Part shown: piece after piece, positions 32,763 to 64,000 of the stretch | Layout: every line of letters starts with the position of its first letter | Numbering within the stretch: position 1 is the first letter of the stretch | Assembly: GCA_044892525.1 (NCBI GenBank) | Contig: CM097885.1 | Location: 25,360,001 to 25,424,000, forward strand | DNA from: Schmidtea polychroa | Taxonomy: Eukaryota | DNA length: 64,000 nucleotides | Direction of reading: 5' to 3' | The notes under the pieces: model-generated | Databases searched by the model: none | Told to the model about the DNA's origin: nothing | What the model saw: only the letters and a program-made list of their open reading frames with translations | Program-made: the position numbers and the translations under genes

Positions 32763-32867
<105 letters not shown>

Positions 32868-33295
32868 CAATCGGATACCAACAACTATCAGGTACAACTA
32901 GATACCAAGTACATACAACCAACTACTAAGTACCTACAACTATGTACTAACAACCAACTAAGTATTCTTTATTGTATTTTATCAAATGATTTTTAAATTA
33001 ATTTTTTATCTGTCTTCAAAAATATGTTTAATTACAATCAGTAGAAAAAATCTTTTCAAAATGTCTAAATTTAACAAAAATGAATAATTGTCAACTCATC
33101 ACTACTTGGAATTCAAAATAATTTAAATTACAATGAAATACTAATGAATTCTAATTTACAAAACATTCTTCTTTTAATTGATAACTACTGACTTATTATT
33201 GCAAAGTAAAAATCACATTCAATAACTACTTATTGTTGATCAGTTTTATTATATATATACTGAGTTTATCCGACAGGATATTTTGACCCCCTAAG

Positions 33296-33365
33296 GGTAC
33301 AGGTCGTAAGGGTACTGGTCGTAAGGGTATTAGTCGTAAAGGTACTAGTCGTAGGGGTATTGGTA
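33296..33365. repeat. 15-bp tandem repeat (GGGTACTGGTCGTAA-like), mirrored at about 43000-43070
   Basis: Four to five degenerate units read directly. Confidence 0.8.
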
Positions 33366-35230
33366 ACACTCAACCACCACCTACCAAGTACTAACAACCA
33401 ACATCAACCAGCTAACAACTAAATACCAAGTACATACAACCAACATCAACCTGGTACTAAGTATTATCAACCTACAACTATATAACAATCAGTAAACAAT
33501 ACTGTACCAACTACCAAATACAAGATACCAACAACTTAGTACCAACAACCAGTAACTTACGAACATGTACTAACAACCAAGTAAAAACAATCAAGTAATA
33601 ACAAATATATCTTTAAAAGAAAATCCTCTTCACTTGCAATATTGGTAACACTCAATCCCCACCTACTCATTAATTAGCTACCATGTACTAACCACTAGGT
33701 TTCAAACAACTAAATACTAAACACTTACAACCATGTACTAACAACCACCATCAAAACCCATCGAGAAATTAACAAATATATACAACTATATGACAACAAT
33801 CAGTAAACAACACTGTACCAACTACTAAATACAAGATACCAAGTACCAACAATCAACTAACAACACATAAAAATAATAGCAATTAAATACAAAATATTCT
33901 TCATCACATGCAATATATTCTTGTCATCATCTACAACTAAACTCTATCAATCAGATACCAAATATTAACAACCAGATACTTACAACCAACAACTATGTAA
34001 TAAAAAATTGATCTTTAAAAGAAAATACTCTTCACTTGAAAAATTGGATGAAAAATTAATAAAAAAAATGCAATTCATTAATTAACTGATTACCAGTACT
34101 TGTATGATTTTCCAATAACTAGATAAAAATTAAATAAATCATTGTAAAAATTTAAATTATTCAAAACATAATAAATAACAAAATGTAATGGACGAAAGAA
34201 CTTTAAATTCTAGTCATTAATCATCCAGTAAATAAAAAAAATACTGATCATTTAAGTTAATCAACTAAGATAATAAAGATAATAAGATCTAGTAGATAAT
34301 TTATTTTGATTGAATAAATTAACTGAAATAAATTAATTCAGTATGAATTCATTACCATTATCAAAGTCAACAATCTACAATAAAAATAATTATCATTAAA
34401 TTCCAAAAGAGACTAGATAACTAATGATGACATCTAATAAACCAGTAAATTCATTTAAATGTCAATAATTGGTATATCCAAGTAAATTTTCTACTAAAAT
34501 CATCTAGAAAGCATCAAATTTCCATGAAATATCAATGTCTTTAAAGATAAGTATTTTATCGATAAATACCCTTAAAAGGCTATATATTTCCCTCAGACTA
34601 AAAGGATTGCTTAAAATCCCGTTTAAATGACTATAATTATATCTTTAATTCCTATTATCACTAATATTTCCCTATAAAACATGTAAAATCATTAACTCTA
34701 AACAATTTATAAAGTCTAATGACAAAAAACAGTTATAATTAAATTTTTGTTCTAAAAATAAATCACTGTAATCGAAATTTAAAATAAATATTGCTTGAAA
34801 TTTGACTGTACAATATAACTGAGTAGTTGCATAGAAAGATTCAATTTATCCATATTTCTTCAAATGATCATTTTTACCAATATCCAACCGATTTAATTAC
34901 TAATTAAAATCACCCGATAGATTTCTCCCAATAAAGATCAATTTTCTTTAGTCGACGTTTTAAATCAATATTTCCAACTTTTGTCGTTGTCCGTCTAAAT
35001 AAAGATAAAAATAATTTAAAGTTGAAGTCAATCCCAATTATCTGTAAAGATTTCATTGTCAAAACCAAGTAAATCGATCATTATCCCTACTTAATAAAAC
35101 AATGTTCTAAATTAATTTACTGTGCATTAATCACAATCTAATAAAACGATATAATTATTATTGATACATAACTGACTAATTACCATTTCCCTTAAAACAT
35201 TGATATTTTACCAACATCACCCTTAAAAAA

Positions 35231-35660
35231 TCATATATTCCCATCTTAACCCATCTCACATTAAATCTAACCGACTATATCTCCCTTACAATGATATATT
35301 CCCACCTTATCTGATCTCTCATTAAAATCAATCGACTATATCCCCCTTACAATGATATATTCCCATCTTAACCCATCCCTCATTAAATTTAGCCGACTAT
35401 ATCCCCTCAAAAGATCATATTCTCTCATTAAAGTCAATCGACTATATCTCCCTTACAATGATATATTCCCATTTTAACCCATCCCTCATTAAATTTAACC
35501 GACTACATCCCCTCAAAAGATCATATTTTCCCATCTTAACCGATCTCTCATTAAATCCCACCAACTATATCCCCCTTAAAAGATCATATATTCCCACCTT
35601 ATCCGATCTCTCATTAAATCTCACCGACAATATCCCAGCTTAATCGATCTCTCACCAAAT
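35231..35660. repeat. ~61-bp C-rich tandem repeat, mirrored at about 40385-40815
   Basis: Units start ATATATTCCCA at 35233, 35294, 35355 and onward. Confidence 0.85.
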
Positions 35661-37876
35661 ATTTCGACCCCTTTAAACATCTATCCGACTATATCCATTA
35701 ATTCTACCCACTTGAATCCTCCTTTAATTCAATCAATCCTCTTAAAATTCTTAGAGAATTCTTCAAAAATATGAATTTTTATTAAATGTTATCGACATCC
35801 AAAATACATCTATGAAATAATTTAGTATCTAAATTCGCGTAGTAAAAGATCAAAATTCACTAAAATTTTCTACAAATATTTACCATCAAATACTGGAGAT
35901 GATATATATTAATTGACCATAATTCTTCAACGATTCAACCAATCATTTTCAAGCAATAATAACAAACTAAATCATAAATTTCAAGTAAATTTAAAATATC
36001 TATCCGAGATAAAGTTAACTGGTTTCTTAGCTTATGTTTTTAAAGATCATCAATGTGTAAATATTCTTAGAAAATTATTGAAAAAAATTATTTAGTCAAA
36101 TGCATTACAAAGTCATCTAAAATTAAACCAATTACATAATTATTAACCTAACAGTCATTAAAAAAAATTAATTTTTATTTAAAATTTAACAAATTATCAA
36201 GAAATTCAATTAAAATCATCATTAAAGCTTTAAATTTTTTAATAAATCAACATGAAATTCTTAGAAAATAATTGAAAAAAAAAATATTACAAAGTCATAT
36301 CCTATCACGTGATTATTAACCTGACTGTCATTAAAAATAATTTTTATTTAAAAAAAAAACCAATCAATTAAAATGCATCCAATTATCAAGAAATTAATTA
36401 AATTTATTTAGAACTAACTTAAAATTTTTAAATATTCATTCAATCCACATGATATTCACGAAAATGATAAAAATTCACAAAAACCATCAACTCTAAAAAA
36501 ATAATTACTAATGAATACCTTAAACACCAAAATTTATCTAAATAATCTTTCAAATTAATTCATTAAAATTGAAGACAACACGCTCTATTTTGTCATTACA
36601 TTCAATTAAAATTAAATAAATCAAGATAAGAACTTTGATAAAAAATATTATTCTAAAATGGTAAAAATTAACACTGTAGTGTTAAATGAAAAGGTAATTA
36701 TTCTTTAAATCTAATTAACTTAGTCATAATTTTCTTTAATTTAACCCTTTATTTACTTAATTTAGTCCTTGTTTACCGAATATAGAAGTTTAAAATATAG
36801 ACCATTGATTACTTTAATTTAAAAATGTATCCCTTAATTTACATAATTTCAATCTAAAATTATTTCAAAAAATTTTTTCTAAAATTGTCATTGAAAAATA
36901 TTTCATAAAAGTTTTCATTTAAAATTTTCATTGAAAAATATTTCATAAAAATTTTCATTAAAAATTATCTTAAAAATTATTCCATAAAAATTTCATTAAA
37001 AAATTTCAATTCTCAAACACCTTCTATTATTTTGTTAATAAATTTAAAATCTTACTTTAATTTGCTTATTACATTACTTATTTAAAAATTATTACTTTAA
37101 TTTACTTATTTAAAATATTTGACCATTGATTACTTAATTTAAAAATTTGGACCTTAATTTACTTTAATTTAATTTTTTAGAACCTTAATTTACTTTAATT
37201 TTAAATTTTGAACCTTAATTAACTTTAATTCAAATTTGGACCTTAATTTACTTTAATTGAAAATTTTAGACCATAATTTACTTAATTGAAATTTTAGACC
37301 TTAATTTGCTTATTTATCTTTAATTTACTTAAGTTTAAAAATATATACCATAATTTACTTAATTGAAATTTTAGACTTTATTTTAGAACTCAATTGAAAA
37401 TTTTAGACCTTAATTTCATGTAAAATTTTAGACCATAATTTACTTATTTGAAAATTTTAGACCTTAAATTGCTTAATTGAAAATTTTAGACCTTAATTTG
37501 CTTATTTATCTTTAATTTACTTTAATTTAAAATTTTAGACCATAATATACTTAATTGAAAATTTTAGACCATAATTTCATGTAAAATTTTAGACCATAAT
37601 TTACTTATTTGAAAATTTTAGACCTTAATTTACTTAATTGGAAATTTTAGACCTTAATTTGCTTATTTATCTTTAATTTACTTAAGTTTAAAAATATATA
37701 CCATAATTTACTTTAATTTAAAATTTTAGACCTTAATTTACTTAATTGAAAATTTTAGACCATAATTTACTTAATTGAAAATTTTAGACCTTAATTTACT
37801 TAATTGAAAATTTTAGACCATAATTTTAATGTAAAATTGTCATTGAAAAAATTTTCATTTCTCAGGCGCTGTTTAT

Positions 37877-38168
37877 AGTAGGTAGATAGTAGCCCACTGC
37901 AGCAATGACCCCCCCCGGGGGGAGGGGGGGTTCTGCTGCAACTTTTTTTTTGCTGCAACTTTTGATTGCGCAATTGTTGCAACTAGTTTTTTTTTTGTTG
38001 TATTTTTTTTTTGTATTATTACGCAATTGTATTATTTTTTTTTTCTAGAATTTTCAATACAAAAAAAAAACAAGTTGCAACAATTGCGCAATCAAATGTT
38101 GCAGCAAAAAAAAAAGATGCAGCATAAAAAAAAGGCTTGCATTTGCAGCGGGCTCCTAACTACCTACT
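37877..38168. mobile_element. 292-bp mini-element with inward-facing AGTAGGTAG termini at the axis of palindrome C
   Basis: Left end AGTAGGTAGATAGTAGCCC; right end (reverse strand) AGTAGGTAGTTAGGAGCCC; both carry TTTGATTGCGCAATTGTTGCAAC, as in the 53890 terminus family. Confidence 0.85.
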
Positions 38169-41100
38169 ATAAACAGCGCCTGAGAAATGAAAATTTTTTC
38201 AATGACAATTTTACATTAAAATTATGGTCTAAAATTTTCAATTAAGTAAATTAAGGTCTAAAATTTTCAATTAAGTAAATTATGGTCTAAAATTTTCAAT
38301 TAAGTAAATTAAGGTCTAAAATTTTAAATTAAAGTAAATTATGGTATATATTTTTAAACTTAAGTAAATTAAAGATAAATAAGCAAATTAAGGTCTAAAA
38401 TTTCCAATTAAGTAAATTAAGGTCTAAAATTTTCAAATAAGTAAATTATGGTCTAAAATTTTACATGAAATTATGGTCTAAAATTTTCAATTAAGTATAT
38501 TATGGTCTAAAATTTTAAATTAAAGTAAATTAAAGATAAATAAGCAAATTAAGGTCTAAAATTTTCAATTAAGCAATTTAAGGTCTAAAATTTTCAAATA
38601 AGTAAATTATGGTCTAAAATTTTACATGAAATTAAGGTCTAAAATTTTCAATTGAGTTCTAAAATAAAGTCTAAAATTTCAATTAAGTAAATTATGGTAT
38701 ATATTTTTAAACTTAAGTAAATTAAAGATAAATAAGCAAATTAAGGTCTAAAATTTCAATTAAGTAAATTATGGTCTAAAATTTTCAATTAAAGTAAATT
38801 AAGGTCCAAATTTGAATTAAAGTTAATTAAGGTTCAAAATTTAAAATTAAAGTAAATTAAGGTTCTAAAAAATTAAATTAAAGTAAATTAAGGTCCAAAT
38901 TTTTAAATTAAGTAATCAATGGTCAAATATTTTAAATAAGTAAATTAAAGTAATAATTTTTAAATAAGTAATGTAATAAGCAAATTAAAGTAAGATTTTA
39001 AATTTATTAACAAAATAATAGAAGGTGTTTGAGAATTGAAATTTTTTAATGAAATTTTTATGGAATAATTTTTAAGATAATTTTTAATGAAAATTTTTAT
39101 GAAATATTTTTCAATGAAAATTTTAAATGAAAACTTTTATAAAATATTTTTCAATGACAATTTTAGAAAAAATTTTTTGAAATAATTTTAGATTGAAATT
39201 ATGTAAATTAAGGGATACATTTTTAAATTAAAGTAATCAATGGTCTATATTTTAAACTTCTATATTCGGTAAACAAGGACTAAATTAAGTAAATAAAGGG
39301 TTAAATTAAAGAAAATTATGACTAAGTTAATTAGATTTAAAGAATAATTACCTTTTCATTTAACACTACAGTGTTAATTTTTACCATTTTAGAATAATAT
39401 TTTTTATCAAAGTTCTTATCTTGATTTATTTAATTTTAATTGAATGTAATGACAAAATAGAGCGTGTTGTCTTCAATTTTAATGAATTAATTTGAAAGAT
39501 TATTTAGATAAATTTTGGTGTTTAAGGTATTCATTAGTAATTATTTTTTTAGAGTTGATGGTTTTTGTGAATTTTTATCATTTTCGTGAATATCATGTGG
39601 ATTGAATGAATATTTAAAAATTTTAAGTTAGTTCTAAATAAATTTAATTAATTTCTTGATAATTGGATGCATTTTAATTGATTGGTTTTTTTTTTAAATA
39701 AAAATTATTTTTAATGACAGTCAGGTTAATAATCACGTGATAGGATATGACTTTGTAATATTTTTTTTTTCAATTATTTTCTAAGAATTTCATGTTGATT
39801 TATTAAAAAATTTAAAGCTTTAATGATGATTTTAATTGAATTTCTTGATAATTTGTTAAATTTTAAATAAAAATTAATTTTTTTTAATGACTGTTAGGTT
39901 AATAATTATGTAATTGGTTTAATTTTAGATGACTTTGTAATGCATTTGACTAAATAATTTTTTTCAATAATTTTCTAAGAATATTTACACATTGATGATC
40001 TTTAAAAACATAAGCTAAGAAACCAGTTAACTTTATCTCGGATAGATATTTTAAATTTACTTGAAATTTATGATTTAGTTTGTTATTATTGCTTGAAAAT
40101 GATTGGTTGAATCGTTGAAGAATTATGGTCAATTAATATATATCATCTCCAGTATTTGATGGTAAATATTTGTAGAAAATTTTAGTGAATTTTGATCTTT
40201 TACTACGCGAATTTAGATACTAAATTATTTCATAGATGTATTTTGGATGTCGATAACATTTAATAAAAATTCATATTTTTGAAGAATTCTCTAAGAATTT
40301 TAAGAGGATTGATTGAATTAAAGGAGGATTCAAGTGGGTAGAATTAATGGATATAGTCGGATAGATGTTTAAAGGGGTAGAAATATTTGGTGAGAGATCG
40401 ATTAAGCTGGGATATTGTCGGTGAGATTTAATGAGAGATCGGATAAGGTGGGAATATATGATCTTTTAAGGGGGATATAGTTGGTGGGATTTAATGAGAG
40501 ATCGGTTAAGATGGGAAAATATGATCTTTTGAGGGGATGTAGTCGGTTAAATTTAATGAGGGATGGGTTAAAATGGGAATATATCATTGTAAGGGAGATA
40601 TAGTCGATTGACTTTAATGAGAGAATATGATCTTTTGAGGGGATATAGTCGGCTAAATTTAATGAGGGATGGGTTAAGATGGGAATATATCATTGTAAGG
40701 GGGATATAGTCGATTGATTTTAATGAGAGATCAGATAAGGTGGGAATATATCATTGTAAGGGAGATATAGTCGGTTAGATTTAATGTGAGATGGGTTAAG
40801 ATGGGAATATATGATTTTTTAAGGGTGATGTTGGTAAAATATCAATGTTTTAAGGGAAATGGTAATTAGTCAGTTATGTATCAATAATAATTATATCGTT
40901 TTATTAGATTGTGATTAATGCACAGTAAATTAATTTAGAACATTGTTTTATTAAGTAGGGATAATGATCGATTTACTTGGTTTTGACAATGAAATCTTTA
41001 CAGATAATTGGGATTGACTTCAACTTTAAATTATTTTTATCTTTATTTAGACGGACAACGACAAAAGTTGGAAATATTGATTTAAAACGTCGACTAAAGA

Positions 41101-43498
41101 AAATTGATCTTTATTGGGAGAAATCTATCGGGTGATTTTAATTAGTAATTAAATCGGTTGGATATTGGTAAAAATGATCATTTGAAGAAATATGGATAAA
41201 TTGAATCTTTCTATGCAACTACTCAGTTATATTGTACAGTCAAATTTCAAGCAATATTTATTTTAAATTTCGATTACAGTGATTTATTTTTAGAACAAAA
41301 ATTTAATTATAACTGTTTTTTGTCATTAGACTTTATAAATTGTTTAGAGTTAATGATTTTACATGTTTTATAGGGAAATATTCGTGATAATAGGAATTAA
41401 AGATATAATTATAGTCATTTAAACGGGATTTTAAGCAATCCTTTTAGTCTGAGGGAAATATATAGCCTTTTAAGGGTATTTATCGATAAAATACTTATCT
41501 TTAAAGACATTGATATTTCATGGAAATTTGATGCTTTCTAGATGATTTTAGTAGAAAATTTACTTGGATATACCAATTATTGACATTTAAATGAATTTAC
41601 TGGTTTATTAGATGTCATCATTAGTTATCTAGTCTCTTTTGGAATTTAATGATAATTATTTTTATTGTAGATTGTTGACTTTGATAATGGTAATGAATTC
41701 ATACTGAATTTTGTGTATAATTTGAGGAATTAGTAAATAGATTTCAATATACGTGTATTACTTTTAAAAAATAATTAAAATTAATTTATTTCAATTAATT
41801 TATTCAATCTAAATAAATTATCTACTAGATCTTATTATCTTTATTATCTTAGTTGATTAACTTGAATGATTTTAGAAAATTTACTTGGATATACTTATTA
41901 TTGACATTTAAATGAATTTACTGGTTTATTAGATGTTATCATTAGTTATCTAGTCTCTTTTGGAATTTAATGATAATTATTTTTATTGTAGATTGTTGAC
42001 TTTGATAATGGTAATGAATTCATACTGAATTAATTTATTTCAGTTAATTTATTCAATCAAAATAAATTATCTACTAGATCTTATTATCTTTATTATCTTA
42101 GTTGATTAACTTAAATGATCAGTATTTTTTTTATTTACTGGATGATTAATGACTAGAATTTAAAGTTCTTTCGTCCATTACATTTTGTTATTTATTATGT
42201 TTTGAATAATTTAAATTTTTACAATGATTTATTTAATTTTTATCTAGTTATTGGAAAATCATACAAGTACTGGTAATCAGTTAATTAATGAATTGCATTT
42301 TTTTTATTAATTTTTCATCCAATTTTTCAAGTGAAGAGTATTTTCTTTTAAAGATCAATTTTTTATTACATAGTTGTTGGTTGTAAGTATCTGGTTGTTA
42401 ATATTTGGTATCTGATTGATAGAGTTTAGTTGTAGATGATGACAAGAATATATTGCATGTGATGAAGAATATTTTGTATTTAATTGCTATTATTTTTATG
42501 TGTTGTTAGTTGATTGTTGGTACTTGGTATCTTGTATTTAGTAGTTGGTACAGTGTTGTTTACTGATTGTTGTCATATAGTTGTATATATTTGTTAATTT
42601 CTCGATGGGTTTTGATGGTGGTTGTTAGTACATGGTTGTAAGTGTTTAGTATTTAGTTGTTTGAAACCTAGTGGTTAGTACATGGTAGCTAATTAATGAG
42701 TAGGTGGGGATTGAGTGTTACCAATATTGCAAGTGAAGAGGATTTTCTTTTAAAGATATATTTGTTATTACTTGATTGTTTTTACTTGGTTGTTAGTACA
42801 TGTTCGTAAGTTACTGGTTGTTGGTACTAAGTTGTTGGTATCTTGTATTTGGTAGTTGGTACAGTATTGTTTACTGATTGTTATATAGTTGTAGGTTGAT
42901 AATACTTAGTACCAGGTTGATGTTGGTTGTATGTACTTGGTATTTAGTTGTTAGCTGGTTGATGTTGGTTGTTAGTACTTGGTAGGTGGTGGTTGAGTGT
43001 TACCAATACCCCTACGACTAGTACCTTTACGACTAATACCCTTACGACCAGTACCCTTACGACCTGTACCCTTAGGGGGTCAAAATATCCTGTCGGATAA
43101 ACTCAGTATGTATATAATAAAACTGATCAACAATAAGTAGTTATTGAATGTGATTTTTACTTTGCAATAATAAGTCAGTAGTTATCAATTAAAAGAAGAA
43201 TGTTTTGTAAATTAGAATTCATTAGTATTTCATTGTAATTTAAATTATTTTGAATTCCAAGTAGTGATGAGTTGACAATTATTCATTTTTGTTAAATTTA
43301 GACATTTTGAAAAGATTTTTTCTACTGATTGTAATTAAACATATTTTTGAAGACAGATAAAAAATTAATTTAAAAATCATTTGATAAAATACAATAAAGA
43401 ATACTTAGTTGGTTGTTAGTACATAGTTGTAGGTACTTAGTAGTTGGTTGTATGTACTTGGTATCTAGTTGTACCTGATAGTTGTTGGTATCCGATTG

Positions 43499-43585
<87 letters not shown>

Positions 43586-44927
43586 GATTATAATTATTAT
43601 TATTTTTATCAATATTATTATTATTTTTATTATTATTAAAAATTATCTTAAAAAATATACGTTAAAAATTTTCATTTAAAATTTTCAATTCTCAATCACC
43701 AACTATTATTCCAACTTTTGTAAATAAATTTTAAAATCTAACTTTAACTTTTTTTACTTATTACATTACTTAAATTTACTTATTTAACTTTAATTTAAAG
43801 TTTTATTTTACCATTGATTACTTAATGTTAAATTTTGAACCTTAATTAACTTTAATTTATTTTTTAGAACCTTAATTTAGTTATTTGAGCCCATTGATTA
43901 CTTTAATTTAAATATTTGGACCTTAATTTACTTATTTGAACTCATTGATTGCTTTAATTTTAAATTTTAGACCTTAATTAACTTATTTGAACCCGTTGAT
44001 TAATTTAAATTAATTTTTTTTAGAACCTTAATTAACTCATTTGAACCCATTGATTACTTTAATTTAATTTTTTTTTAGAACCTTAATTAACTTATTTGAA
44101 CCTGTTGATTAATTTAATTTAATTTTTTTTTAGAACCTTAATTAACTCATTTGAACCCATTGATTACTTTAATTTAATTTTTTTTTTTGGATCTTAATTT
44201 ACTAATTTGAATCTTAATTTACTTATTACATTACTTATTTAAAAATTATTACTTTAATTTACTCATTTAGCTTTAATTTAAAATTTGAACCATTGTTTCC
44301 TTTAATTTCATAATTTAGCCTTTAATTTACTTATTTAACTTTAAATTAAAATTATTGACCATTGTTTACTGTAATTCAATTTTTAGACCCAATATTTAAT
44401 GTAATTCAAAAATTTGGACCATAATTTACTTTAATTTAATTTTTAGGTCCATAATTTACTGTAATCCAATTTTTAGACCCATAATTTGCTTTATTTTAAA
44501 AAAATTACCATGTTTTTTAGTGTAGACCACCTTTTTGTATTGAAAATAACCTGAGACCTTGAATTACCATACTTTTTTAGTGTAAACCGTCTTTTTGTAT
44601 TGAAAATCCTAGGACTATGGAGACTCTCTCACTATAGTGTGAAAAATCCATGCTTTTTTATTGGAGACTACCTTTTTCTATTGAAATTCTCAGGACCAAG
44701 GAGACCCACCCAAATAATATTTATCCTTGGCTTGTTTATTGAAAAAAAAAAAAAAAAAAAATTTTGTATTTAAAATCCCAGAAAACATTGGGCATTACGG
44801 CAACAATTATGTAATCAAAAAATGTCTACGGAAAAAGTTATGCAATCAAAAGTTTGCAACATTTTTTACCCCCCCCCCCCCCCCCCACCCTATTGCTGCC
44901 GTAAGCCACTAACTACTTACTCACCTT

Positions 44928-50730: not shown

Positions 50731-51724
50731 ATGCCATTTAAATATTTTAAAAAATGTTTCTATTTTGATTTTTAAATCCTAATGATTTTCTAAAATTATA
50801 TTTTATCTATATTATTTTAAATTTAAATTATTGTTTTAATATTTAATTTAATTTTTTATAAAAGCTATTCTCAAGGTCAAAATACAACAAATCAAATTGA
50901 TGATTTCATTAATCTCTTCTTTAGTGTTGATTGTTGGCCGTCTGTTTATTATGAGAATTGCTTCCTTAAATTTGACATTTTTTTTGGATGTTAGGTGAAT
51001 TTATTATAAATTTAAATAAAAATTAAACAATAAAAAAAATTTACATTTTTCCACCAAATCGGAATACGACTTCGACTCCCCAATAGAAACAGAGGCATTT
51101 TCGAGTTGATCCCCAATACAAACGGGAGCATATTTGTCGATTTTTCCATTAAAAGAAAATTTTAATATTTTTTAAAGAGAAAAATATAGTTTTTTCATTG
51201 TAAATTTATTTTTATGTTTTTTACCGAGAAAAATTACCTAAACTCTTTCATTTAAAAATAAATTTTAATATTCTTTATCGAGATCACAACAAGCAAAGGC
51301 TCGCAGATTCATTTTTGTCATGTCAAACCGATCGTAAAACCAACTTTAAACAGTTTAGCCATGATTTCAAATAGTCCATCAGGACTCCATTCCATCCAAA
51401 CTACAACAGACTCGTTTTAAAATGAAAGTATGTCCAAGGTTACAGCATTTATACAAATAAATACAATACAACATAAGCTCAATAATTGAGCTTAAATATG
51501 AATTGTTAGTACATAAATATTTAACATTTGTGTAATAAGAGCCCGTGACTAACACAGACATATAAAATACAAGTGAATGAAAAAACATATTCGCAGAAGA
51601 AATCATGATTAACAAAAACACGAGTAATAAAAATGCATCCTGTAATGCATCTCTCTAGATATTCATTTCAACAAATATTTATAAAACTTTTGATCAGTAA
51701 TTAAAAAACTAATCATGTATTTGA

Positions 51725-52933
<1,209 letters not shown>

Positions 52934-53889
52934 ACAAAAATATTTTTAATTTAAATAATATGATTAATTAATAAACAATTAACTTTATATTTTTTGTATG
53001 TGCAAAAAATACAATGAATTCAACTTTTGGAATAAATGTTGACAATGGTTTTTATTATTTTATCATAAATAATTATAATTATTTAAATTATAAAAATATA
53101 TAAAAGTATCAAAAATTATTCACATTTAATTCCATTTAAAAATTATTTTTCAGTAAAATATTTTTATATTTTCATCACTGATATATTTTCAATTTCCTTT
53201 ATCTTCATTTGTTTTTATATAATCAAACGATATTTCATGTTAAATGTAAAACAAAATATTGATCAATAGTCTAATATTTATGAAGACAACAGAAGAATTT
53301 CCATAAATTAAATATAGCCGTTGTCACTAAATTAATTAGGACTGAATATTTACAATGGTCCAGATAATATAATTCATGTAGATAATATAACGTAAATTAT
53401 TATTATTATTAGGAAAAGTTAATTATTCAATGTTTAAAATGACTATAAATATTTAAAATTGTAAATATCGCAGAATTATAAATTTTAGTATAGGGGCCCA
53501 TCGAAGATTGACAAAAAATGAACCCTTACATTAGGTGTACAAGATGTACAAGGTGTAATTCATGCGTTATGTGAAATATTACATTTCTGCAGATTTTAAT
53601 AGTCAAAGATTCTACAAATATTTTATTAAAGAAAATTGATTTGAAAATACAAATAAATGTTTCTTCAATGTTTTATTAAAAGTGACCCTTGGTGAGGATC
53701 TCAATAAAAAATAAAAAAACAGTTATTAAATAATTATACAAACTGGGTAAACAAATGGAACATAAAAAAAAACATTTGTTATGTGGAATCTTTCATGTTT
53801 CGAATGGTTGGAAAGTCATTGATAATATGTTTTTTGAAGGAGTGTAACTGGTTAGGGAAGAATTGGGTATTTATTTTTCAATATTCTTT

Positions 53890-54847
53890 AGTAGGTAGTT
53901 AGGAGCGCCTTGGAACAATTACCCACGGGGGGGGGGGGTAAAATTGTTCCAACTTTTGATTACGCAATTGTTCCAACTCACTTATTTTTGCTTTCAGGGA
54001 ATTTTAGTACAGACTTTTTTTTATCAGACTAGAGTGAGGGGGGGGGGGGTCTCTATTGATCCAGGGATTTTCAATACAAATTTGAATTACCACTAAAAAA
54101 GCATGAAATTTTAGAAAAAAATTAAGGTGGGTCTCCATTGTCCTAGGATTTTCAATACAAAGAGGTGGTTTACACTAAAAAACAATGGTAATTTAAGGTC
54201 TCAGGATATTTTCAATACAAAAATCCGATTATCACTAAAAATGCATAAAATATTCAAAGTAAATTAAGGTGGGTCTTCTTGGTCCTGAGAATTTCAATAG
54301 TAAAAGGTGGTCTACGCTAAAAAAGCGTGGTAAATTTTTAAAATATGTCAAATTATGGGTCTAATAATTGAATTAAAGTAATCAATGGGCTGAAATAAGT
54401 TAATTAAGGTCCATATTTTTGAATTACATTAAATAATGGGTCTAACAATTGAATTAAAATAATCAATGGGTTCAAAAAAGTAAATAATGGTCCAAATTTT
54501 AAAATTAAAGTAAATCAAGGTCTAAAATTTTAAATTAAAGTAATGAATGGGCTCAAATAACTAAATTAAGGTTCTAAAAAATTAAAATTAAGTAAACAAT
54601 GGTCTAAAATTTTAAATTAAAGTTAAATAAGTAAATTAAAGTAATAATTTTTAAATAATTAAATTAAGGTAATGTAATAAGTAAATTAAAGTAAGATTTT
54701 AAAAATTTATTAACAAAAAGTTGAAATAATAGTCAGTAATTGAAAATTGAAATTTTTTAATGAAAACTTTTATGAAATAATTTTTAAAGAAAATTTTAAT
54801 GGATTAATTTTTTAAGTCAACTTTTAATGAAATTTTTTAATGAAATT
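53890..54847 (+). mobile_element. Element D: Polinton-like terminus and subterminal repeats, interrupted by element E
   Basis: AGTAGGTAGTTAGGAGCG plus G-run, GGATTTTCAATACAAA repeats and AAGTAAATTA.GGT repeats as in B, C and E. Confidence 0.85.
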
Positions 54848-55950
54848 AGTAGGTAGTTAGTAGCTTACGGCAGCAATAGGGGGGGGGGGTAAAAATGTTG
54901 CAAACTTTTGATTGCATAACTTTTTCCGTAGACATTTTTTGATTACATAATTGTTGCCGTAATGCCCAATGTTTTCTGGGATTTTAAATACAAAATTTTT
55001 TTTTTTTTTTTTTTTTTTTTTCAATAAACAAGCCAAGGATAAATATTATTTGGGTGGGTCTCCTTGGTCCTGAGAATTTCAATAGAAAAAGGTAGTCTTC
55101 AATAAAAAAGCATGGATTTTTCACACTATAGTGAGGGGATCTTCTTGGTCATGAGAATTTCAATAGAAAAGGTGGTTTACATTAAAAAACGCATAGTAAA
55201 TTTTTAAAATAAAGTAAATTATGGGTCTAAAATTTAAAAATAAAGTAAATGATGGGTCTAAAAATTTAAGTAAATCAAGGTTCAGATTTATTTTTGAAAT
55301 AAAGTAAATTATGGTCTAAATAAGTAAATTATGGGCTAAGATTTTTCAATTAAAGTAAATAATGGTTCTAAAAAATTAAATTACAGTAAATTATGGTCAA
55401 AATTTTTGAATTACAGTCCAAAAATTTAAATTAAAGTAAATTATGATCCAAATTTTTAAATTAAAGTAAATAATGGTTCTAAAAAATTAAATTAAAGTAA
55501 ATAATGGTCCAAATATTTTAAATTACAGTAAATAATGGTTCTAAAAATTAAATTACAGTAAATAATGGTCAAAAATTTTAAAATTAAAGTAAATTATGGT
55601 TCTAAAAATTAAATTACAGTAAATAATGGTCAAAAATTTTAAAATCAAAGTAAATTATGGTTCTAAAAATTAAATTAAAGTTAATTAAGGTCAAAAATTT
55701 TAAAATTAAAGTAATAATTTTTAAATAAGTAAATTAAAGTAATGTAATAAGTAAATTAAAGTAAGATTTTTAAATTTATTAACAAAAATAGAAGGTGTTT
55801 GAGAATTGAAATTTTTTAATGGAAATTTAAATGAATTATTTTTTAAGTAATTTTTAATAGAAATTTTTATGAATAATTTTCAATGGTAATTTTTAATGGA
55901 AATTTTAATAGAATAATTTTTAAGATAATTTTTAATGAAAATTTTTATGA

Positions 55951-55994
<44 letters not shown>

Positions 55995-56132
55995 TAATAT
56001 TAATAATATATCAACCAAATACTATACAACACATAAAAAATTAACTAAACACATAAAAATAACTAGACACATAACAAAACATAAAAATTTACCAAATAAC
56101 AAATGTAAAGATATAAAATTTATTCAATAAAA

Positions 56133-59027
56133 TTAGTCCTCATCGGACAAAATAACGTCATCGATATCGATGTCATCTTCTCCAAAATCTTCATTTAATT
56201 CTTCCTCATCTTCTCCATCATTTTCTCCAACATTTTCTGAAACATTTTCTGCAACAATTTCTCCAACATTTTCTCCAATATTTAATTCACTTAATCTTAC
56301 ATGCCCATATGCAAGACTAGTATTTTTCCCCACCCAAACCCTTTTGTCATCTTTGTTAGTTAGTGCTATTTTTGTGTTTTTAATTGTAAAAATTTGATGA
56401 TTTTTGCTTGTTATTTTAGTCTGAGGAACCGAAAAAATCTGGTTAGTGTTATAACAATCCAGGTATGACTGATGTTTTATGTCACTACCTTTCAATGTTA
56501 CACCTTTAGCCTTTTTTGTTTCCTCATCACTCAACAAGCTATAACATTTAGGTCTAAGAAAAACCCACTCCTTATATTTAAGACCTTTATTCTCGTCTTT
56601 GAACTTTCCAATGACTGAATCAAGGTTCTTACTATATAAGGAATGACAACTATTGTAATTGGAAGTATCCAATAAATTATCTCGAACCATTGCAGGTAAA
56701 AGAACCTCAAGTTTGCAGTTAATGACTTCGAGGAAAAAAGAATCTGTATCACCTGCAACGATATTAATTTTACAATTAAACTCATTGCGAAATGATTCCA
56801 GATCCTTATATTGCAATTCATACATTCTAAGTTTAGATAGATCAAGTACAGATTGACCAATGTAACTCGGTCTATCTAAACATATAGAATCTGAATTCAA
56901 TAGTGCTGCAATTAAATTATCTGCTATTTTAATAGATTTTTTAAAAGTTGGTTTTGACGAATATTTAACTAATTTACCGGCAGTTGTACAAAGACGAAGA
57001 TTCATTCTTCTCTTTAAGTTTTCAACTGTTTTGCCGTATAAACTATTATTTAGCAATTTATAATAATTTTTATCTAAGCTATTTACGCTTTTTGATCTTA
57101 ATTCAGTATTTGTATCTATATATTTTTTAAAAATTGGTGATTGCTTAAATCTTACACCCCTATTTACACGTGTTACTTTAACACCAAGTTCCAAATATAA
57201 TTTTAATAATCTCCAATGAATAACATAATTAGATTTTGGAAGATGAGTTAATAATAATTTTTCAACCTTAGACCCAGCAGGTTTCATTTTTTCAGCAGCT
57301 ACAGGGAAATCATCCAACTTATCATGAAGCTCAGAAGGAATTACAAGATCAACTTCAAGTGTGTATCCATAAGACAAAGATTCAAGATTTAAATTCCTAC
57401 ATTCATCCATTATTTTATCAAATCCATCAAGAACCCAACAAAATTCGCCACAAGGTAATGATTGACTTAAAGCCCAGCCATAAAGATTATTAATATCTAT
57501 ATATAGTAACTCAGTGTTCTCGTCGGTTTTTACGTAATGCTTATTCACAAAAGTAAGACCGCCTCTTATTCCACCCTCATAAAAGCTAAACATTTCGTTT
57601 TCAGTTATGAGTTCAATTGGTTCATTTAAAGACATTAATGCAGAAGACCAAGACATGCCTGGAATTCCGAAATAATTCAATGGTTCCAATCTATTGTGAG
57701 CAATGGATTTCAACCGAAACTGATGAAAGAAATCAGCCAAAAGAAAACAATCAAGTTTTAGGTAGATCATCATATAATCTAATAAAGTTACGCAATTAGT
57801 TTCTACCCAAATCTCCTGAGCTTTTTCATACTCAAGCTCAGTGACACCCTCCCAGATTGGTGGTAATTCATAAGTAGTTTGGAGAATATCTAAAGAAGTG
57901 GCGAAATTATAAGGGAAGATTCCTTTTTCACTTACTATGGTGCCAGAAAAAGCAGAATTAGTAAAAGGCAAAGAATTCAAAGTTTTGACTGCTTTAGCCA
58001 AAGAATCATTGACAAATTGATACGAATCAATGAATCTTAGGCTAATTTTACCTAAATGAGCAATCAAAGATATAAATTTTTCCGTAGTTATTGGGATGCA
58101 CCCTAAATTCCAATTTTTAAATTTATTTAATCCATATTTAAGTATATGGTGCATATCGTATCCCTTCAAGTTGTGAAATACGATAGGCAAAATTTTATTT
58201 ATTTTCCTATTTACGTTACATGTGCTACAAGCTGCACCCAAGTATTTCCCCGTAAAATGATCGTGATCTCTAACAGGATCGACGATAGATTTCAAACAAA
58301 GATAACAAACCGTTGAATTAATGAATTGTTGTTGCTCAATTTTTGTTAATTTCATCATAGGTTTCCTACCCATTTTATAATAAAAAGGAAGAACCTTATT
58401 TAATGCTATATCCTCTATAGCACTTAAAAAACTCTCGACGCAATCTAAACCTATGAACTGCTGATAAGATTTAGATCCGTCAAAGTTATTTACAAGTAAA
58501 AGACCAGCAGATATTGGCATGTGTCGTTGGAAATGATCATTATCAGAAGGTAAAATAGCCTCAAAATCTGCATAAACTACAAAAGGAGGAGTTACTGTTT
58601 TCGACCAGTCAGTAAACTGTAATAATTTATTTTGAGGGAAGGTGTAAAGAGTTGTTCCTAATTGATTACGTTTACATAATATTTCATGTTTTTCTAGTGC
58701 GTGTTTATTATTAAACCCATTCAAACACCGATGGCACCATAATGAACGTATGCGTGTAGGACAACTAGTGTTGATATGACAATTCATTAACTTATTTAAA
58801 TTACTTATAGCAACGTAATGGAAATTGTTTCCTTTATTTAATAATAGTAAATTAATTACAGTTCCATTTAAAACTTTGGAACGATGTATAATATCTAAAT
58901 GTGGGTGTTTTAAAACGTAATTATCTATTAATTGTTTGTTATTGTCATAAGAAAAAACGTTAATTATTAAGCCTGGATTTTTGGCCTCGAATTTTCTAAT
59001 ATCTTTTAATTTCATGGGTAAGTCCAA
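56133..59027 (-). CDS. polB: Protein-primed family B DNA polymerase with zinc finger and inserted endonuclease-VII-like module
   Basis: 964-aa ORF: CHRC..H..C finger, VVYADFE (ExoI), CYLC..DHDH..ACSTCN (EndoVII-like), FHNLKGYD, YIDINNLYG, KLLNNSLYGK, AGDTDS, acidic tail. The frame stays open up to ~59170. Confidence 0.95.
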   Translation of the reverse strand: MDLPMKLKDIRKFEAKNPGLIINVFSYDNNKQLIDNYVLKHPHLDIIHRSKVLNGTVINLLLLNKGNNFHYVAISNLNKLMNCHINTSCPTRIRSLWCHRCLNGFNNKHALEKHEILCKRNQLGTTLYTFPQNKLLQFTDWSKTVTPPFVVYADFEAILPSDNDHFQRHMPISAGLLLVNNFDGSKSYQQFIGLDCVESFLSAIEDIALNKVLPFYYKMGRKPMMKLTKIEQQQFINSTVCYLCLKSIVDPVRDHDHFTGKYLGAACSTCNVNRKINKILPIVFHNLKGYDMHHILKYGLNKFKNWNLGCIPITTEKFISLIAHLGKISLRFIDSYQFVNDSLAKAVKTLNSLPFTNSAFSGTIVSEKGIFPYNFATSLDILQTTYELPPIWEGVTELEYEKAQEIWVETNCVTLLDYMMIYLKLDCFLLADFFHQFRLKSIAHNRLEPLNYFGIPGMSWSSALMSLNEPIELITENEMFSFYEGGIRGGLTFVNKHYVKTDENTELLYIDINNLYGWALSQSLPCGEFCWVLDGFDKIMDECRNLNLESLSYGYTLEVDLVIPSELHDKLDDFPVAAEKMKPAGSKVEKLLLTHLPKSNYVIHWRLLKLYLELGVKVTRVNRGVRFKQSPIFKKYIDTNTELRSKSVNSLDKNYYKLLNNSLYGKTVENLKRRMNLRLCTTAGKLVKYSSKPTFKKSIKIADNLIAALLNSDSICLDRPSYIGQSVLDLSKLRMYELQYKDLESFRNEFNCKINIVAGDTDSFFLEVINCKLEVLLPAMVRDNLLDTSNYNSCHSLYSKNLDSVIGKFKDENKGLKYKEWVFLRPKCYSLLSDEETKKAKGVTLKGSDIKHQSYLDCYNTNQIFSVPQTKITSKNHQIFTIKNTKIALTNKDDKRVWVGKNTSLAYGHVRLSELNIGENVGEIVAENVSENVGENDGEDEEELNEDFGEDDIDIDDVILSDED

Positions 59028-59158
59028 TGGATTATATATTAATTCAGATAAATTATAACTGGATGTCCTATTTCTAGCATAACTACTAACCTCATCATAT
59101 TTTAAAATAGCTAAAATGCTATATAAAAAACATGAATCATCGGTGTTTTTTATATTAA

Positions 59159-59905
59159 TTAAACAATACTTAATCTACTTAGCCTACTTATTTTTGTTAT
59201 GGTGAAATGTATTTCAGTGATATTTTTTATATTCCAACTGCTTCCTAACTCAGTAATATTAGTAATTTTCTCATTTAATTCCTTAATGCCTTCATCAAAA
59301 AATGATGCAGTTAAAGGCTTTGCATAATTTGAGATATTATTAACCTTTATTTCCCTGTCTTTTTCAAATTCGATTGTTATTCCGAATTGAATTTTGACGG
59401 AGCCTAATTCGTTAATAATATCTCGTAATTTTTTTATTAGTTGTTCAGGAAATATTATTTCTTTTATATTTAAGTCGCTTGTATTTAAGCTTAATATTTG
59501 ATGGGTACCTCTTAGATCTTTTTGTATTATTGGAACATTTCCACCTATTTGTATTATATTTAATCCATCCCAAGAGTCAAGGGAAATATTATCTAATCCA
59601 ACCTGGGATTCAACAACCAATCCATCATGGGATTCGACAACCAATCCATCATTGGATTCCACAAAAGGCAATCCGACCTGGGATTCAAAAGAAGAAGTAT
59701 CTAATTTAATTTTTTTATTTTTATTATTTTTTTCTATAGTTGAGGGTCTTTTAAAAACACTATCTTTTTTAAAATTAAACCTATCTAAATGATTTTTATG
59801 TTTATTATAAAAAACGCTATATGTTACGGGGTCACTAGTCTTACATACGGGACATATAAAATAAGTTTTATTATAATATCTTTTTCGTATAATAATTCTC
59901 CATTA
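59159..59905 (-). pseudogene. N-terminal (terminal-protein-side) part of polB, disconnected by a deletion
   Basis: Open frame with CPVC..HKNH finger, VES.DGLV repeats, IQIGG and ITELGSSW..EIHFTITKISRLSRL. The last part is continuous with polB in element B (48449-49216). Confidence 0.75.
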
Positions 59906-60940
59906 TAGAATGGCAATTATTATCATGTTCTTTCGATGAACAATAATTTGGGTAAAGTATACCTATAAAATAAAAATTTAATAAAAAAAATATAATTTAA
60001 ATGAAATATTTTAGTAAATGTTTACGCAAAAATTTGCAAATTATTATTATTTTACAAATTTTATTTACTAAAAAATAAAAATTTACTAAATTAAAAATAT
60101 TAACATTTACTTAAATAAAAAATTATATTAAATTTCCTTTAAATTATAAAAAGTAATCAATACTTACATTGTAAATTTTCATTTCGATTTATTGACACAT
60201 TGACATAATTTTTTTTCTTTATTCGTATTACCTAAATTATTAATTAATTAAATCAATAAATTAAAAATTATGTTTACTTTTTCTTTTCAAATTTCCTTTA
60301 ATCTTAGATTTTAAATTGTCTTCATTAATATTATCTAAATTAATTAATAAATTAATTAATAAATAAATTAAAATTTACCAAATTTCTGAATTTTTTCTCG
60401 GACATTCATAACGTTTTCTATTAAAGAATTCATTTTTAAAGGTTAACTATTTGTTAAATGTGACTAATGATTGATTATTGTTTATAGATTATTATTGTTT
60501 ATAGATTATTATTGTTCATAGGAACAAATTCTAACCAATCAAAATCAAGGAAGGGTAGGAAAAATTAATTTATTTTAAAACACATTTTGACGCTAAAGTT
60601 GACTTATTTAACATTTTCATAATAATTTAATAAAAATAATGTGATGAACACACAAAGTAATATCATTTTTCATCAAATTGCAAAACAGTAATAACGTTTT
60701 CATAAAATTGTAACAAAGTAATAACATATTTCAGATAAATTTTCAACAGTTGTAAAATATTTATCAAATTGTAACTAAAATAATAAAAATATTGCAACAA
60801 AGTAATAAAATAATAATGGTAATTAAGACAAATCAATACATTATTTCGAAGACGGACAACAAATTAAAAAGAATATTGTAACTAAAATAATAAAAATATT
60901 GCAACAAAGTAATAAAATAATACAACATTTTAAACTCTAG

Positions 60941-61345
60941 ATCAATCCATTTTATAGAAAATTAAATTTTATCTATATAATATATGAATAAATATCCAAG
61001 GAAATTACGTTAACGTATAATAAATACAAATTTATCGTAAAAACATGTGTGTATTACACACAAAACAAGATACATAATTTCTAATCAATCCATTTTATAG
61101 AAAATTAAATTTTATCTATATATTATATGAATAAAATCCTAAGAAAATTACGTTAACTGTATGAAAAATACAAATTTATCATAAAAACATGTGTGTATTA
61201 CACACAACATACGAGACATAATTTTTAATCAAGCTATTTTATAGAAAATTAAATTTTATCTATATAATATATGAATAAAAATCCAAGAAAATTACGTTAA
61301 CCGCGCGAAAAACTACAAATTTATTGTAAAAACATGTGTGCATTA
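60941..61345. repeat. ~143-bp tandem repeat x3 (mirrored at about 62660-63065)
   Basis: Units start at 60941, 61084 and 61228; each contains the hairpin-like TGTGTG.ATTACACAC and TACGTTAAC. Confidence 0.85.
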
Positions 61346-61472
61346 CACACAAAGCATCAAACTGAAATTGTAATTGCGCCATGTTGTAGAGAATTAAATT
61401 CTGCCTATACATTGTTACACTTAAATCTCGATCAGACATGTGAAAAGAGACATAAAAGAGAAAGAACAGTAG

Positions 61473-62533
61473 AGTAGTATGATTGGAGCTCCCCAGACCA
61501 GGAGCTCCCCGCGCCACATATACCCCCTCCCCCCCCCCCCGGGGAAAAATTTTTTTTTTTTAAAATAAAAGGTCAAGGTCATTTTTTAATTTAATTTTTT
61601 GTTTTAATTAAGTGATCATTTAATTTTTCAAGGTCATATTTTAAAATTTAAATGTACAGAGTTCCCGCCGACAAATATTATTAAACGATACCTCATTTTA
61701 AAGCTCGGTCTAAGACCTTTCGATTGATCCATAGAAGGTATCATCATCATTAATATTAACAAAGTTATTAACATTTAACCAAAAATCATTTTCAAGGTCA
61801 TATAATTATTAGTGGTCCAGCGGTGACCTGGTTTTCGTTTGCCCCAAAGTTATCGTTCCCATTATCCGAATTTATTATTTGATAGCTTATTTTGAAGCTT
61901 AGTGCAAGATCTATCTACTGATGTATAAATATTATCATCATCATTATTATTGGCAAAATTATTAACGTTTTCCCGAGACCATTTTCAAGGTCATTTATTT
62001 TTCAAAATATTATTATTTCCAAGGTCATTTATTTTTTCAAGGTCGCGTGACTCATCAAGGTCATTCCCAAGGTCATTTTTTTTTAGGTCATTTTTTAATT
62101 TAATTTTTTGTTTTAATTAAGTGATCATTTAATTTTTCAAGGTCATATTTTAAAATTTAAATGTACAGAGTTCCCGCCAACAAATATTATTAAACGATAC
62201 CTCATTTTAAAGCTCGGTCTAAGACCTTTCGATTGATCCATGGAAGGTATCATCATCATTAATATTAACAAAGTTATTAACATTTAACCAAAAATCATTT
62301 TCAAGGTCATATAATTATTAGTGGTCCAGCGGTGACCTGGTTTTCGTTTGCCCCAAAGTTATCGTTCCCATTATCCGAATTTATTATTGGATAGCTTATT
62401 TTGAAGCTTAGTGCAAGATCTATCTACTAATGTATAAATATTATTATTAACATTATTTTACACACGGGGGGGGGGGGAGAGGGTATATGTGGCCTGGCGG
62501 TGACCTGGTCTGGATGGCCCCAATCATACTACT
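61473..62533. mobile_element. ~1.06-kb AGTAGT-ended cassette at the axis of palindrome E
   Basis: Imperfect ~70-bp inverted ends (AGTAGTATGATTGG..CCAGACCAGG..GCCACATATACCC..C-run); internal direct repeat of period 509 (61577-61950 / 62086-62455); many CAAGGTCA motifs. Confidence 0.65.
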
Positions 62534-64000
62534 CTACTGTTCTTTCTCTTTTATGTCTCTTTTCACATGTCTGATCGAGATTTAAGTGTAACAATGTATA
62601 GGCAGAATTTAATTCTCTACAACATGGCGCAATTACAATTTCAGTTTGATGCTTTGTGTGTAATGCACACATGTTTTTACAATAAATTTGTAGTTTTTCG
62701 CGCGGTTAACGTAATTTTCTTGGATTTTTATTCATATATTATATAGATAAAATTTAATTTTCTATAAAATAGCTTGATTAAAAATTATGTCTCGTATGTT
62801 GTGTGTAATACACACATGTTTTTATGATAAATTTGTATTTTTCATACAGTTAACGTAATTTTCTTAGGATTTTATTCATATAATATATAGATAAAATTTA
62901 ATTTTCTATAAAATGGATTGATTAGAAATTATGTATCTTGTTTTGTGTGTAATACACACATGTTTTTACGATAAATTTGTATTTATTATACGTTAACGTA
63001 ATTTCCTTGGATATTTATTCATATATTATATAGATAAAATTTAATTTTCTATAAAATGGATTGATCTAGAGTTTAAAATGTTGTATTATTTTATTACTTT
63101 GTTGCAATATTTTTATTATTTTAGTTACAATATTCTTTTTAATTTGTTGTCCGTCTTCGAAATAATGTATTGATTTGTCTTAATTACCATTATTATTTTA
63201 TTACTTTGTTGCAATATTTTTATTATTTTAGTTACAATTTGATAAATATTTTACAACTGTTGAAAATTTATCTGAAATATGTTATTACTTTGTTACAATT
63301 TTATGAAAACGTTATTACTGTTTTGCAATTTGATGAAAAATGATATTACTTTGTGTGTTCATCACATTATTTTTATTAAATTATTATGAAAATGTTAAAT
63401 AAGTCAACTTTAGCGTCAAAATGTGTTTTAAAATAAATTAATTTTTCCTACCCTTCCTTGATTTTGATTGGTTAGAATTTGTTCCTATGAACAATAATAA
63501 TCTATAAACAATAATAATCTATAAACAATAATCAATCATTAGTCACATTTAACAAATAGTTAACCTTTAAAAATGAATTCTTTAATAGAAAACGTTATGA
63601 ATGTCCGAGAAAAAATTCAGAAATTTGGTAAATTTTAATTTATTTATTAATTAATTTATTAATTAATTTAGATAATATTAATGAAGACAATTTAAAATCT
63701 AAGATTAAAGGAAATTTGAAAAGAAAAAGTAAACATAATTTTTAATTTATTGATTTAATTAATTAATAATTTAGGTAATACGAATAAAGAAAAAAAATTA
63801 TGTCAATGTGTCAATAAATCGAAATGAAAATTTACAATGTAAGTATTGATTACTTTTTATAATTTAAAGGAAATTTAATATAATTTTTTATTTAAGTAAA
63901 TGTTAATATTTTTAATTTAGTAAATTTTTATTTTTTAGTAAATAAAATTTGTAAAATAATAATAATTTGCAAATTTTTGCGTAAACATTTACTAAAATAT

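Follow-up and report, generated by a model that had tools for sequence, protein, structure and literature searches.

Foldback transposons such as FB and Galileo carry very long, internally repetitive inverted arms, and adenovirus genomes with duplicated ends, engineered and non-integrating, form via internal inverted repeats (delta-Ad.IR) and panhandle repair of the inverted terminal repeats. For Polintons (Mavericks), passages of PMC8097293 give duplications of 6 bp at the target site (TSDs), AGT end motifs and a suggested size constraint. Copy-back (snap-back) defective genomes are defined, mainly in negative-sense RNA viruses, in sections of a review (PMC13506859), and a passage of PMC1864894 attributes the integrated copies of invertron plasmids, which have long inverted repeats on either side, to panhandle intermediates. 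Here we describe element E, located in a 64,000-nucleotide stretch of Schmidtea polychroa DNA (the window; assembly GCA_044892525.1, contig CM097885.1, positions 25,360,001 to 25,424,000, forward strand). E is a palindrome of two inverted copies of the end that carries the gene (polB) for a protein-primed DNA polymerase (pPolB) in R, a complete Polinton of the same genome. We consider it probable that the E family is a copy-back defective genome, copied, integrated and possibly packaged by the proteins of a helper.

E, E1-E3, F, R, Q, Q2, P, B, C and D are labels for elements and families coined in this analysis, and coordinates above 64000 come from extending the window (G000:C1:25360001-25424000; genome of 781 Mb, AT-rich) through neighbouring stretches of the contig. 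With the contig extended by 10 kb, E was found to span 54848-69097 (14,250 bp), with the TSD GAAATT on each side, an AGTAG.. end motif and terminal inverted repeats. Inside the window, positions summing to 124006 mirror each other over 1,481 bp without mismatch, from 60006/64000 to 61486/62520, the first mismatch there being 61487/62519; with the next 10 kb added, the perfect mirror measures 4,982 bp and reaches 56505/67501. The arms, 54848-61550 and 62455-69097, are 98.7% identical, each inverted arm being 6.7 kb long with one pPolB, and about 93% of E is self-complementary. No integrase, ATPase or capsid gene was found in 54848-69097, where the only frames of at least 100 amino acids (aa) are polB and, once in each arm, an alternative frame of 114 aa that overlaps it; E likewise showed no cut-and-paste transposase. 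The features are as follows.

54842-54847, plus strand: left TSD copy GAAATT, in AT-rich repeats of the older element D.
54848-55199, plus strand: left outer terminus, AGTAGGTAGTTAG.., with a G run; it nearly matches the ends of R, AGTAGGTAGATAG...
55200-56132, no strand assigned: AT-rich subterminal repeat array, homologous to the subterminal repeats of R, holding most arm-to-arm indels.
56133-59174, minus strand: large pPolB frame, 1013 aa stop to stop; Pfam DNA_pol_B_2 (PF03175), E=4.7e-31; candidate vOTU Cys/His, Exo I-III and Pol A-C motifs.
59159-59902, minus strand: N-terminal pPolB frame, 247 aa, presumed terminal-protein region, separated from the large frame by a short deletion that shifts the reading frame.
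59903-61472, minus strand: region upstream of polB, with a splice-acceptor-like site and, at 60936-61409, tandem repeats of about 144 bp.
61473-62533, no strand assigned: central non-palindromic spacer, 1,061 bp, with inward-facing Polinton ends AGTAGTATGATTGG.. at both edges.
62534-64000, plus strand: first part of the right arm, mirroring 60006-61472 exactly.
64104-67873, plus strand, extended coordinates (our locus L001): pPolB of the right arm with the same break; the outer terminus ends at 69097 and GAAATT follows at 69098-69103.

This anatomy bears out most of the original prediction, which was made from the window alone and proposed a palindrome of about 14.3 kb with two divergent polB genes and without integrase, ATPase or capsid genes; TSDs are present on both sides. 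The mirror continues past 64000 into a second polB, rather than ending or giving way to unique Polinton genes, and this plus-strand copy lies where it was expected (64832-67873, first ATG at 64991). The anticipated right end, ..CTAACTACCTACT followed by GAAATT, was found, but at 69097 instead of 69158, the difference being due to an indel of 61 bp within the AT repeats, and the older host element D resumes after the right TSD in the extended contig, as foreseen. The mirror pairing about 62003 also holds, but that position is a mere midpoint of the spacer, which is bounded by the inward-facing ends at 61473/62533.

In the window copy polB is split into two frames (247 and 1013 aa) in both arms. 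The break, at about 59160-59175, separates the presumed terminal-protein region from the vOTU-exonuclease-palm part, in the pPolB domain order that we adopted from a passage of bioRxiv 10.1101/2024.03.18.585575. Both arms of the window copy have the deletion that splits the gene, whereas no sister arm spanning this point among the 30 loci fetched has it. A splice-acceptor-like AG|G near 59964, ahead of polB, is conserved in R and in two further Polinton groups, Q and Q2; polB is probably spliced, with a predicted first exon that was not found, and some of the genes called broken below could be wrongly called because of this. A sequence search of the PDB gave no match at E<=0.1, and a homologue search gave 422 matches among 7,999 scored candidates, the best at 61% identity, all without genomic context.

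To delimit the family, the centre-proximal 2.5 kb of E was used as query; 39 of 5,852 candidates were scored, with 34 other loci, 30 of which were fetched. Both outer ends were present in 23 of these 30, with element lengths of 14.0-15.3 kb, and a 6-bp TSD flanks 23 of the 24 copies of subfamily E1 with both ends, window copy included (chance about 8e-4 per copy). Subfamily E2, at about 92% identity, has the same type of centre and a TSD in 4 of 4 cases. E3 comprises 9 loci, measures 15.8-17.0 kb in the copies with both ends located, and has a centre of 0.3 kb bounded by ends of the R type and an exact TSD in 7 of 9. The E-type centre junction pattern, which includes family F (see below) and deleted forms and excludes E3, has 329+330 matches, and a polB marker common to E and R has 510+526 = 1,036 matches with up to one mismatch. 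A few hundred dispersed, young copies is a fair estimate for the E family. Eight of 28 E copies are inserted in Polinton-related DNA, a count from which we claim no preference.

The mirror might be an artefact of fold-back reads in the assembly. The length of its perfect part and a junction known from assembled contigs alone would suit this explanation, as would two suspicious cases: an E copy that lacks a TSD and is bordered, over 9.6 kb beyond its ends, by DNA that forms inverted copies with 99.9% identity (L063-L064 with L181-L184, G000:C2 ~70.31-70.34 Mb), and a similar copy on the small unplaced contig C702, either of which may be a rearrangement or an assembly error. An artefact is nevertheless scarcely credible, because nearly all E1 copies with both ends have a 6-bp TSD of their own; dozens of loci show distinct TSDs and unique flanks, the spacer is non-palindromic and copy-specific (461-1,474 bp among copies), some mutations are specific to one arm, and hybrids have unlike arms.

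The source of the arms was found among polB matches that have no inverted partner. Five of the eight that were fetched are complete Polintons, R, of 16.6-17.1 kb where both ends were found, which encode a TBP-like protein, an A32 ATPase, an rve integrase whose gene is interrupted by a short stretch resembling an intron, two proteins presumed to be minor capsids, a major capsid protein and pPolB. The major capsid call rests on an Atlas look-alike at 0.98 (from a cluster with a DJR-like domain in 24% of members) and on gene position. An R ATPase marker has 308 matches, corresponding to about 300 R copies. The pPolB proteins of R and E share 88-92% aa identity, and each arm of E aligns with the polB end of R at 91-92% nucleotide identity as far as the start of polB, which together with the nearly matching ends shows, at the level of sequence, that the arm descends from the polB end of R. 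The TBP-like gene of R lies head-to-head with the ATPase gene (L139:3323-3832, minus strand; Pfam PF00352, E=1.3e-15). Apparent introns were seen in Polinton genes, namely a GT-AG stretch in the R integrase (L139:5050-6210) and an ATT repeat in the Q integrase (extended 98003-99124), unlike the intact vertebrate Mavericks, which a passage of PMC8097293 describes as intronless.

Two other relationships were considered and rejected. E is not the polymerase half of a bipartite Polinton, as 9 of 10 Q-type loci have their own pPolB (57-65% aa identity to that of E) and the tenth is interrupted by an E copy; nor is the neighbouring complete Polinton P the parent, since its ends, AGTAGTGTG, differ and its pPolB is just 27-29% identical. 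Both Q and P, which adjoin the window, are complete and have their own, more distant polymerases. P, at extended 76821-91649, has at least 90 near-identical integrase copies, and its integrase is fused to a phospholipase-A2-like domain.

The centre of E has another source. Its spacer, which contains a direct repeat of 373 bp (61576-61948 / 62085-62457), is 67-85% identical to the subterminal repeats of Q2, and the outer ends of Q2 are the inner ends of E. Nine elements with such ends were fetched, of which four are complete and five are gene-less palindromes. Judged by these matches, the centre is a deletion remnant of this other complete Polinton subfamily, and not a hairpin.

The two arms of an element resemble each other more than they resemble other copies. 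Among 24 E1 elements the median arm-to-arm divergence in polB is 0.026%, compared with 0.091% when each is set against its nearest other copy and 0.60% against all copies; the arms are each other's closest relatives in 17 of the 24 and tied in 6, and private substitutions occur in both arms in 44 cases and in one arm in 24. Palindromes of the same kind have also arisen from other Polintons. Locus L019, an 8-kb palindrome built from a Q2 polB end around a loop of 608 bp, has the look of a separate and young instance. Family F (L123-L124, G000:C1 ~299250-312510) is a 13.3-kb polB-only palindrome with outer ends AGTAGTGAATAG and the TSD CATAAA; it has the E centre and about 800 bp of the E inner arm, while its polymerase, only 54% identical to that of E, falls in another clade of a PolB protein tree that was a quick IQ-TREE run without bootstrap.

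We then asked whether E depends on its polymerase, because the E family could instead be a selected, replicase-carrying satellite or plasmid-like replicon in which two polB genes confer an advantage in cis and a helper supplies integration and capsids only. Of 28 E1/E2 copies, 11 have an open frame in each arm (3 in one arm, 14 in neither), as do 5 of 9 E3 copies; this would fit such a replicon, as would raw ratios of non-synonymous to synonymous change of about 0.10 between E1 and E2 (dN/dS) and 0.14 for shared variants (pN/pS), and the existence of F as a second polB-only palindrome. A further point in its favour is that divergent (inverted) polB-marker pairs are far commoner than candidate ATPase-end palindromes (in the first 100 matches listed, inverted pairs number 31 and 3 respectively, the ATPase pairs being counted by eye). 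This excess counts against a copy-back origin in that it may mean that polB helps in cis; it may also be a founder effect of few origins. Candidate palindromes of other Polinton ends include an inverted P-integrase pair (G000:C1:98870519/98878070) and inverted R-ATPase pairs (C1:67731336/67741699, 67841877/67854288 and 216071055/216082835).

The low ratios, which we had taken as proof that E needs its own PolB, were withdrawn as such once the parent R and recombination tracts were found. E1 is a mosaic of R-like and E2-like tracts, and its synonymous excess lies in variants that R or a different subfamily likewise carries (20 non-synonymous to 46 synonymous). Variants novel to E1 number 34 non-synonymous to 13 synonymous: 8:0 when shared, 14:8 when private to one element and in both arms (p=0.058) and 12:5 when in one arm, for a neutral synonymous share of 0.20; the numbers involved are low, and transition bias is not part of the site model. 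The stem of E2 has 33 synonymous changes to 8, an excess that cannot be credited to the palindromic form because degraded complete elements with E2-leaning polB exist (L069, L145, L147). Broken alleles, meanwhile, have spread to several independent loci, so that E multiplies without intact genes of its own: one early stop is common to 9 of 28 elements, and frameshifts are common to two loci with different TSDs. A selected replicase-carrying satellite is accordingly unlikely. From the sequences, mutations new to E1 look near-neutral, polB seems to be renewed through recombination with R and with sister subfamilies, and the pPolB of E is probably not required in cis; E acts as a derivative that relies on a helper while still carrying polB. 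What these data do not support in the original prediction is a self-sufficient, replicase-only replicon: the arm is a duplicated polB end of R, both polB genes of the window copy are broken, broken alleles sit at independent loci, novel E1 variants show no clear purifying selection, and gene-less kin share the ends and build of E.

A copy-back origin would account for this structure in a few steps. Protein-primed strand-displacement replication would release a displaced or incomplete single strand, which could fold back at the short inverted ends of the nested Polinton remnant, or switch template, and be extended over its own arm, so that both ends would be identical and carry an origin. Further rounds of fold-back repair would hold the arms alike, and hybrids could stem from annealing or template switching that involves different molecules. 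The homogenised arms and L019 are compatible with such a step. The proteins of R would replicate the element, and the duplex would be inserted, with a TSD of 6 bp, by R's retroviral-type integrase. Doubling of the arm would give a length of roughly 75-100% of that of the helper, which may reflect packaging. Palindrome lengths do cluster at 12.6-17.0 kb, beside 16.6-17.1 kb for R, and 31 of 39 end-to-end pairs with an E terminus measure 12-17 kb; these lengths may reflect a packaging limit of the kind that PMC8097293 suggests for Mavericks, which they fit but do not prove.

Several observations weigh against this origin or narrow it. The family is known here as integrated copies in assembled contigs, and neither an extrachromosomal form nor a transcript, particle or replication intermediate was observed. 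The 1.5 kb upstream of polB in E has no counterpart in the R copy compared, and the direct parent may therefore be an older R lineage. Novel both-arm variants of E3 number 12:14, a synonymous excess (p=1e-4) that possibly comes from unsampled donors. Inner termini are absent from the centre in all five gene-less Q2 derivatives and in L019, so a palindrome can form without them and we rejected them as a requirement. Homogenisation, moreover, is usual but not obligatory. Variants shared among elements occur in both arms in 535 cases and in one arm in 4, in a sample of loci picked by best BLAST score, which favours pure copies and under-represents hybrids. Of 20 unpaired E2-marker matches, four are hybrids of E1 and E2 whose arms differ by about 5% and for which no TSD was seen. 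In L035 an E arm and an F arm, with the 54% polymerase identity noted above, are joined inside one TSD.

The hybrids also bear on a last alternative, namely that a single chromosomal rearrangement produced the palindrome, that ordinary duplex copying without any fold-back step multiplied it, and that gene conversion by the host preserved its symmetry after insertion. Arm identity alone cannot date homogenisation, and the inverted flanking DNA of L063, which lacks a TSD, indicates that host-side inversion may occur unless it is an assembly error. However, hybrid arms 5% apart persist in the chromosome, single-arm mutations accumulate, and the E/F hybrid must have formed before insertion because its TSD is intact. 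We therefore regard conversion after insertion as distinctly improbable, more so than the selected satellite, and continue to favour a copy-back origin.

A broader proposal, which we put forward tentatively as possible though doubtful, is that these elements are DNA-virus satellites of the copy-back type, heritable and of capsid length, under selection to retain both polymerase genes. They would outpace their parent in replication, provide the bulk of the genome's R-type replicase, exchange arms and centres with other families of Polintons and acquire host genes such as actin by fold-back. An older element (window 22674 to extended 115727) has E-type ends and the TSD CACCAT and is inserted in a Q-type integrase gene. 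Its two arms each hold an intronless actin gene, at 51653-53809 and 111913-114056 (97.5% identical), and D (53890-91883) forms its centre; it is an apparent case of capture and inverted duplication of a host-type actin gene. The gene-less fold-back element C (window 30702-44921, 14.2 kb, TSD CACCTT) also has E-type ends, 93-94% identical to the left terminus of E, and its centre and inner arm are 89-91% identical to subfamily E3. C lies inside a Gypsy element (window 25110-47553) whose long terminal repeats are 99.1% identical and in which the frame that lies upstream of the gag-like region has a ubiquitin-like domain.

We found no published account of polB-only palindromic Polintons, in a search to which Repbase and subscription journals did not belong. 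The relevant passages of 10.1101/2023.08.22.554363, PMC8097293, PMC6431247 and 10.64898/2025.12.11.693146 contain no palindromic form, and those of the first two no non-autonomous form, while the part of PMC11414722 that lists 10 loci with pPolB and terminal inverted repeats but without integrase does not describe palindromes. New here are the complete parent, the census, the hybrids and the selection test on polB of a palindromic Polinton family.

Replication and packaging of Polintons have so far been inferred mostly from gene content. Re-copied arms, recombination at the centre before insertion and a near-helper length would be the genomic footprint of strand displacement with fold-back, and if the copy-back origin is true, the E family is a fossil record of Polinton DNA copying. 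The model predicts snap-back single strands, protein-capped linear DNA of 14 kb and its presence in nuclease-protected particles. It would also give Polintons a route to large inverted duplications and to the capture of host genes. Its importance is tempered by a polymerase that seems dispensable.

Compared with known systems, E shares long repetitive arms with the foldback transposons FB and Galileo, although its ends, TSD length and gene content are of the Polinton type. As in the adenovirus derivatives, one end is doubled around an insert with inverted repeats, in a system with protein-primed strand-displacement replication. The invertron plasmids (pAL2-1, kalilo and the cytoplasmic pGKL) are likewise pPolB-bearing and capsid-less with inverted ends, but they also encode an RNA polymerase and persist as free plasmids, whereas E has integrase-type TSDs, a living viral parent, no second gene and, given its near-neutral novel variants and the spread of broken alleles, no clear need for its own polymerase. 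With Polintons, as characterised in passages of PMC8097293 and PMC6431247, E has in common a protein-primed PolB, AGTAG-type ends, terminal inverted repeats, a 6-bp TSD and a size of about 15 kb. Unlike complete Polintons it lacks integrase, ATPase and capsid genes, and its "terminal inverted repeat" is 6.7 kb long and encloses a whole polB, giving two polB genes; E is not a complete Polinton but a non-autonomous derivative, sharing its ends with R and multiplying without intact genes. Its closest likeness is to the copy-back defective genomes, in which, in the sections of PMC13506859 devoted to them, one parental end is duplicated in inverted orientation around a short loop and propagation is helper-dependent, as we propose for E. 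Unlike the copy-back genomes of that review, E is DNA, is integrated with a TSD, is inherited in hundreds of copies and retains a large gene twice.

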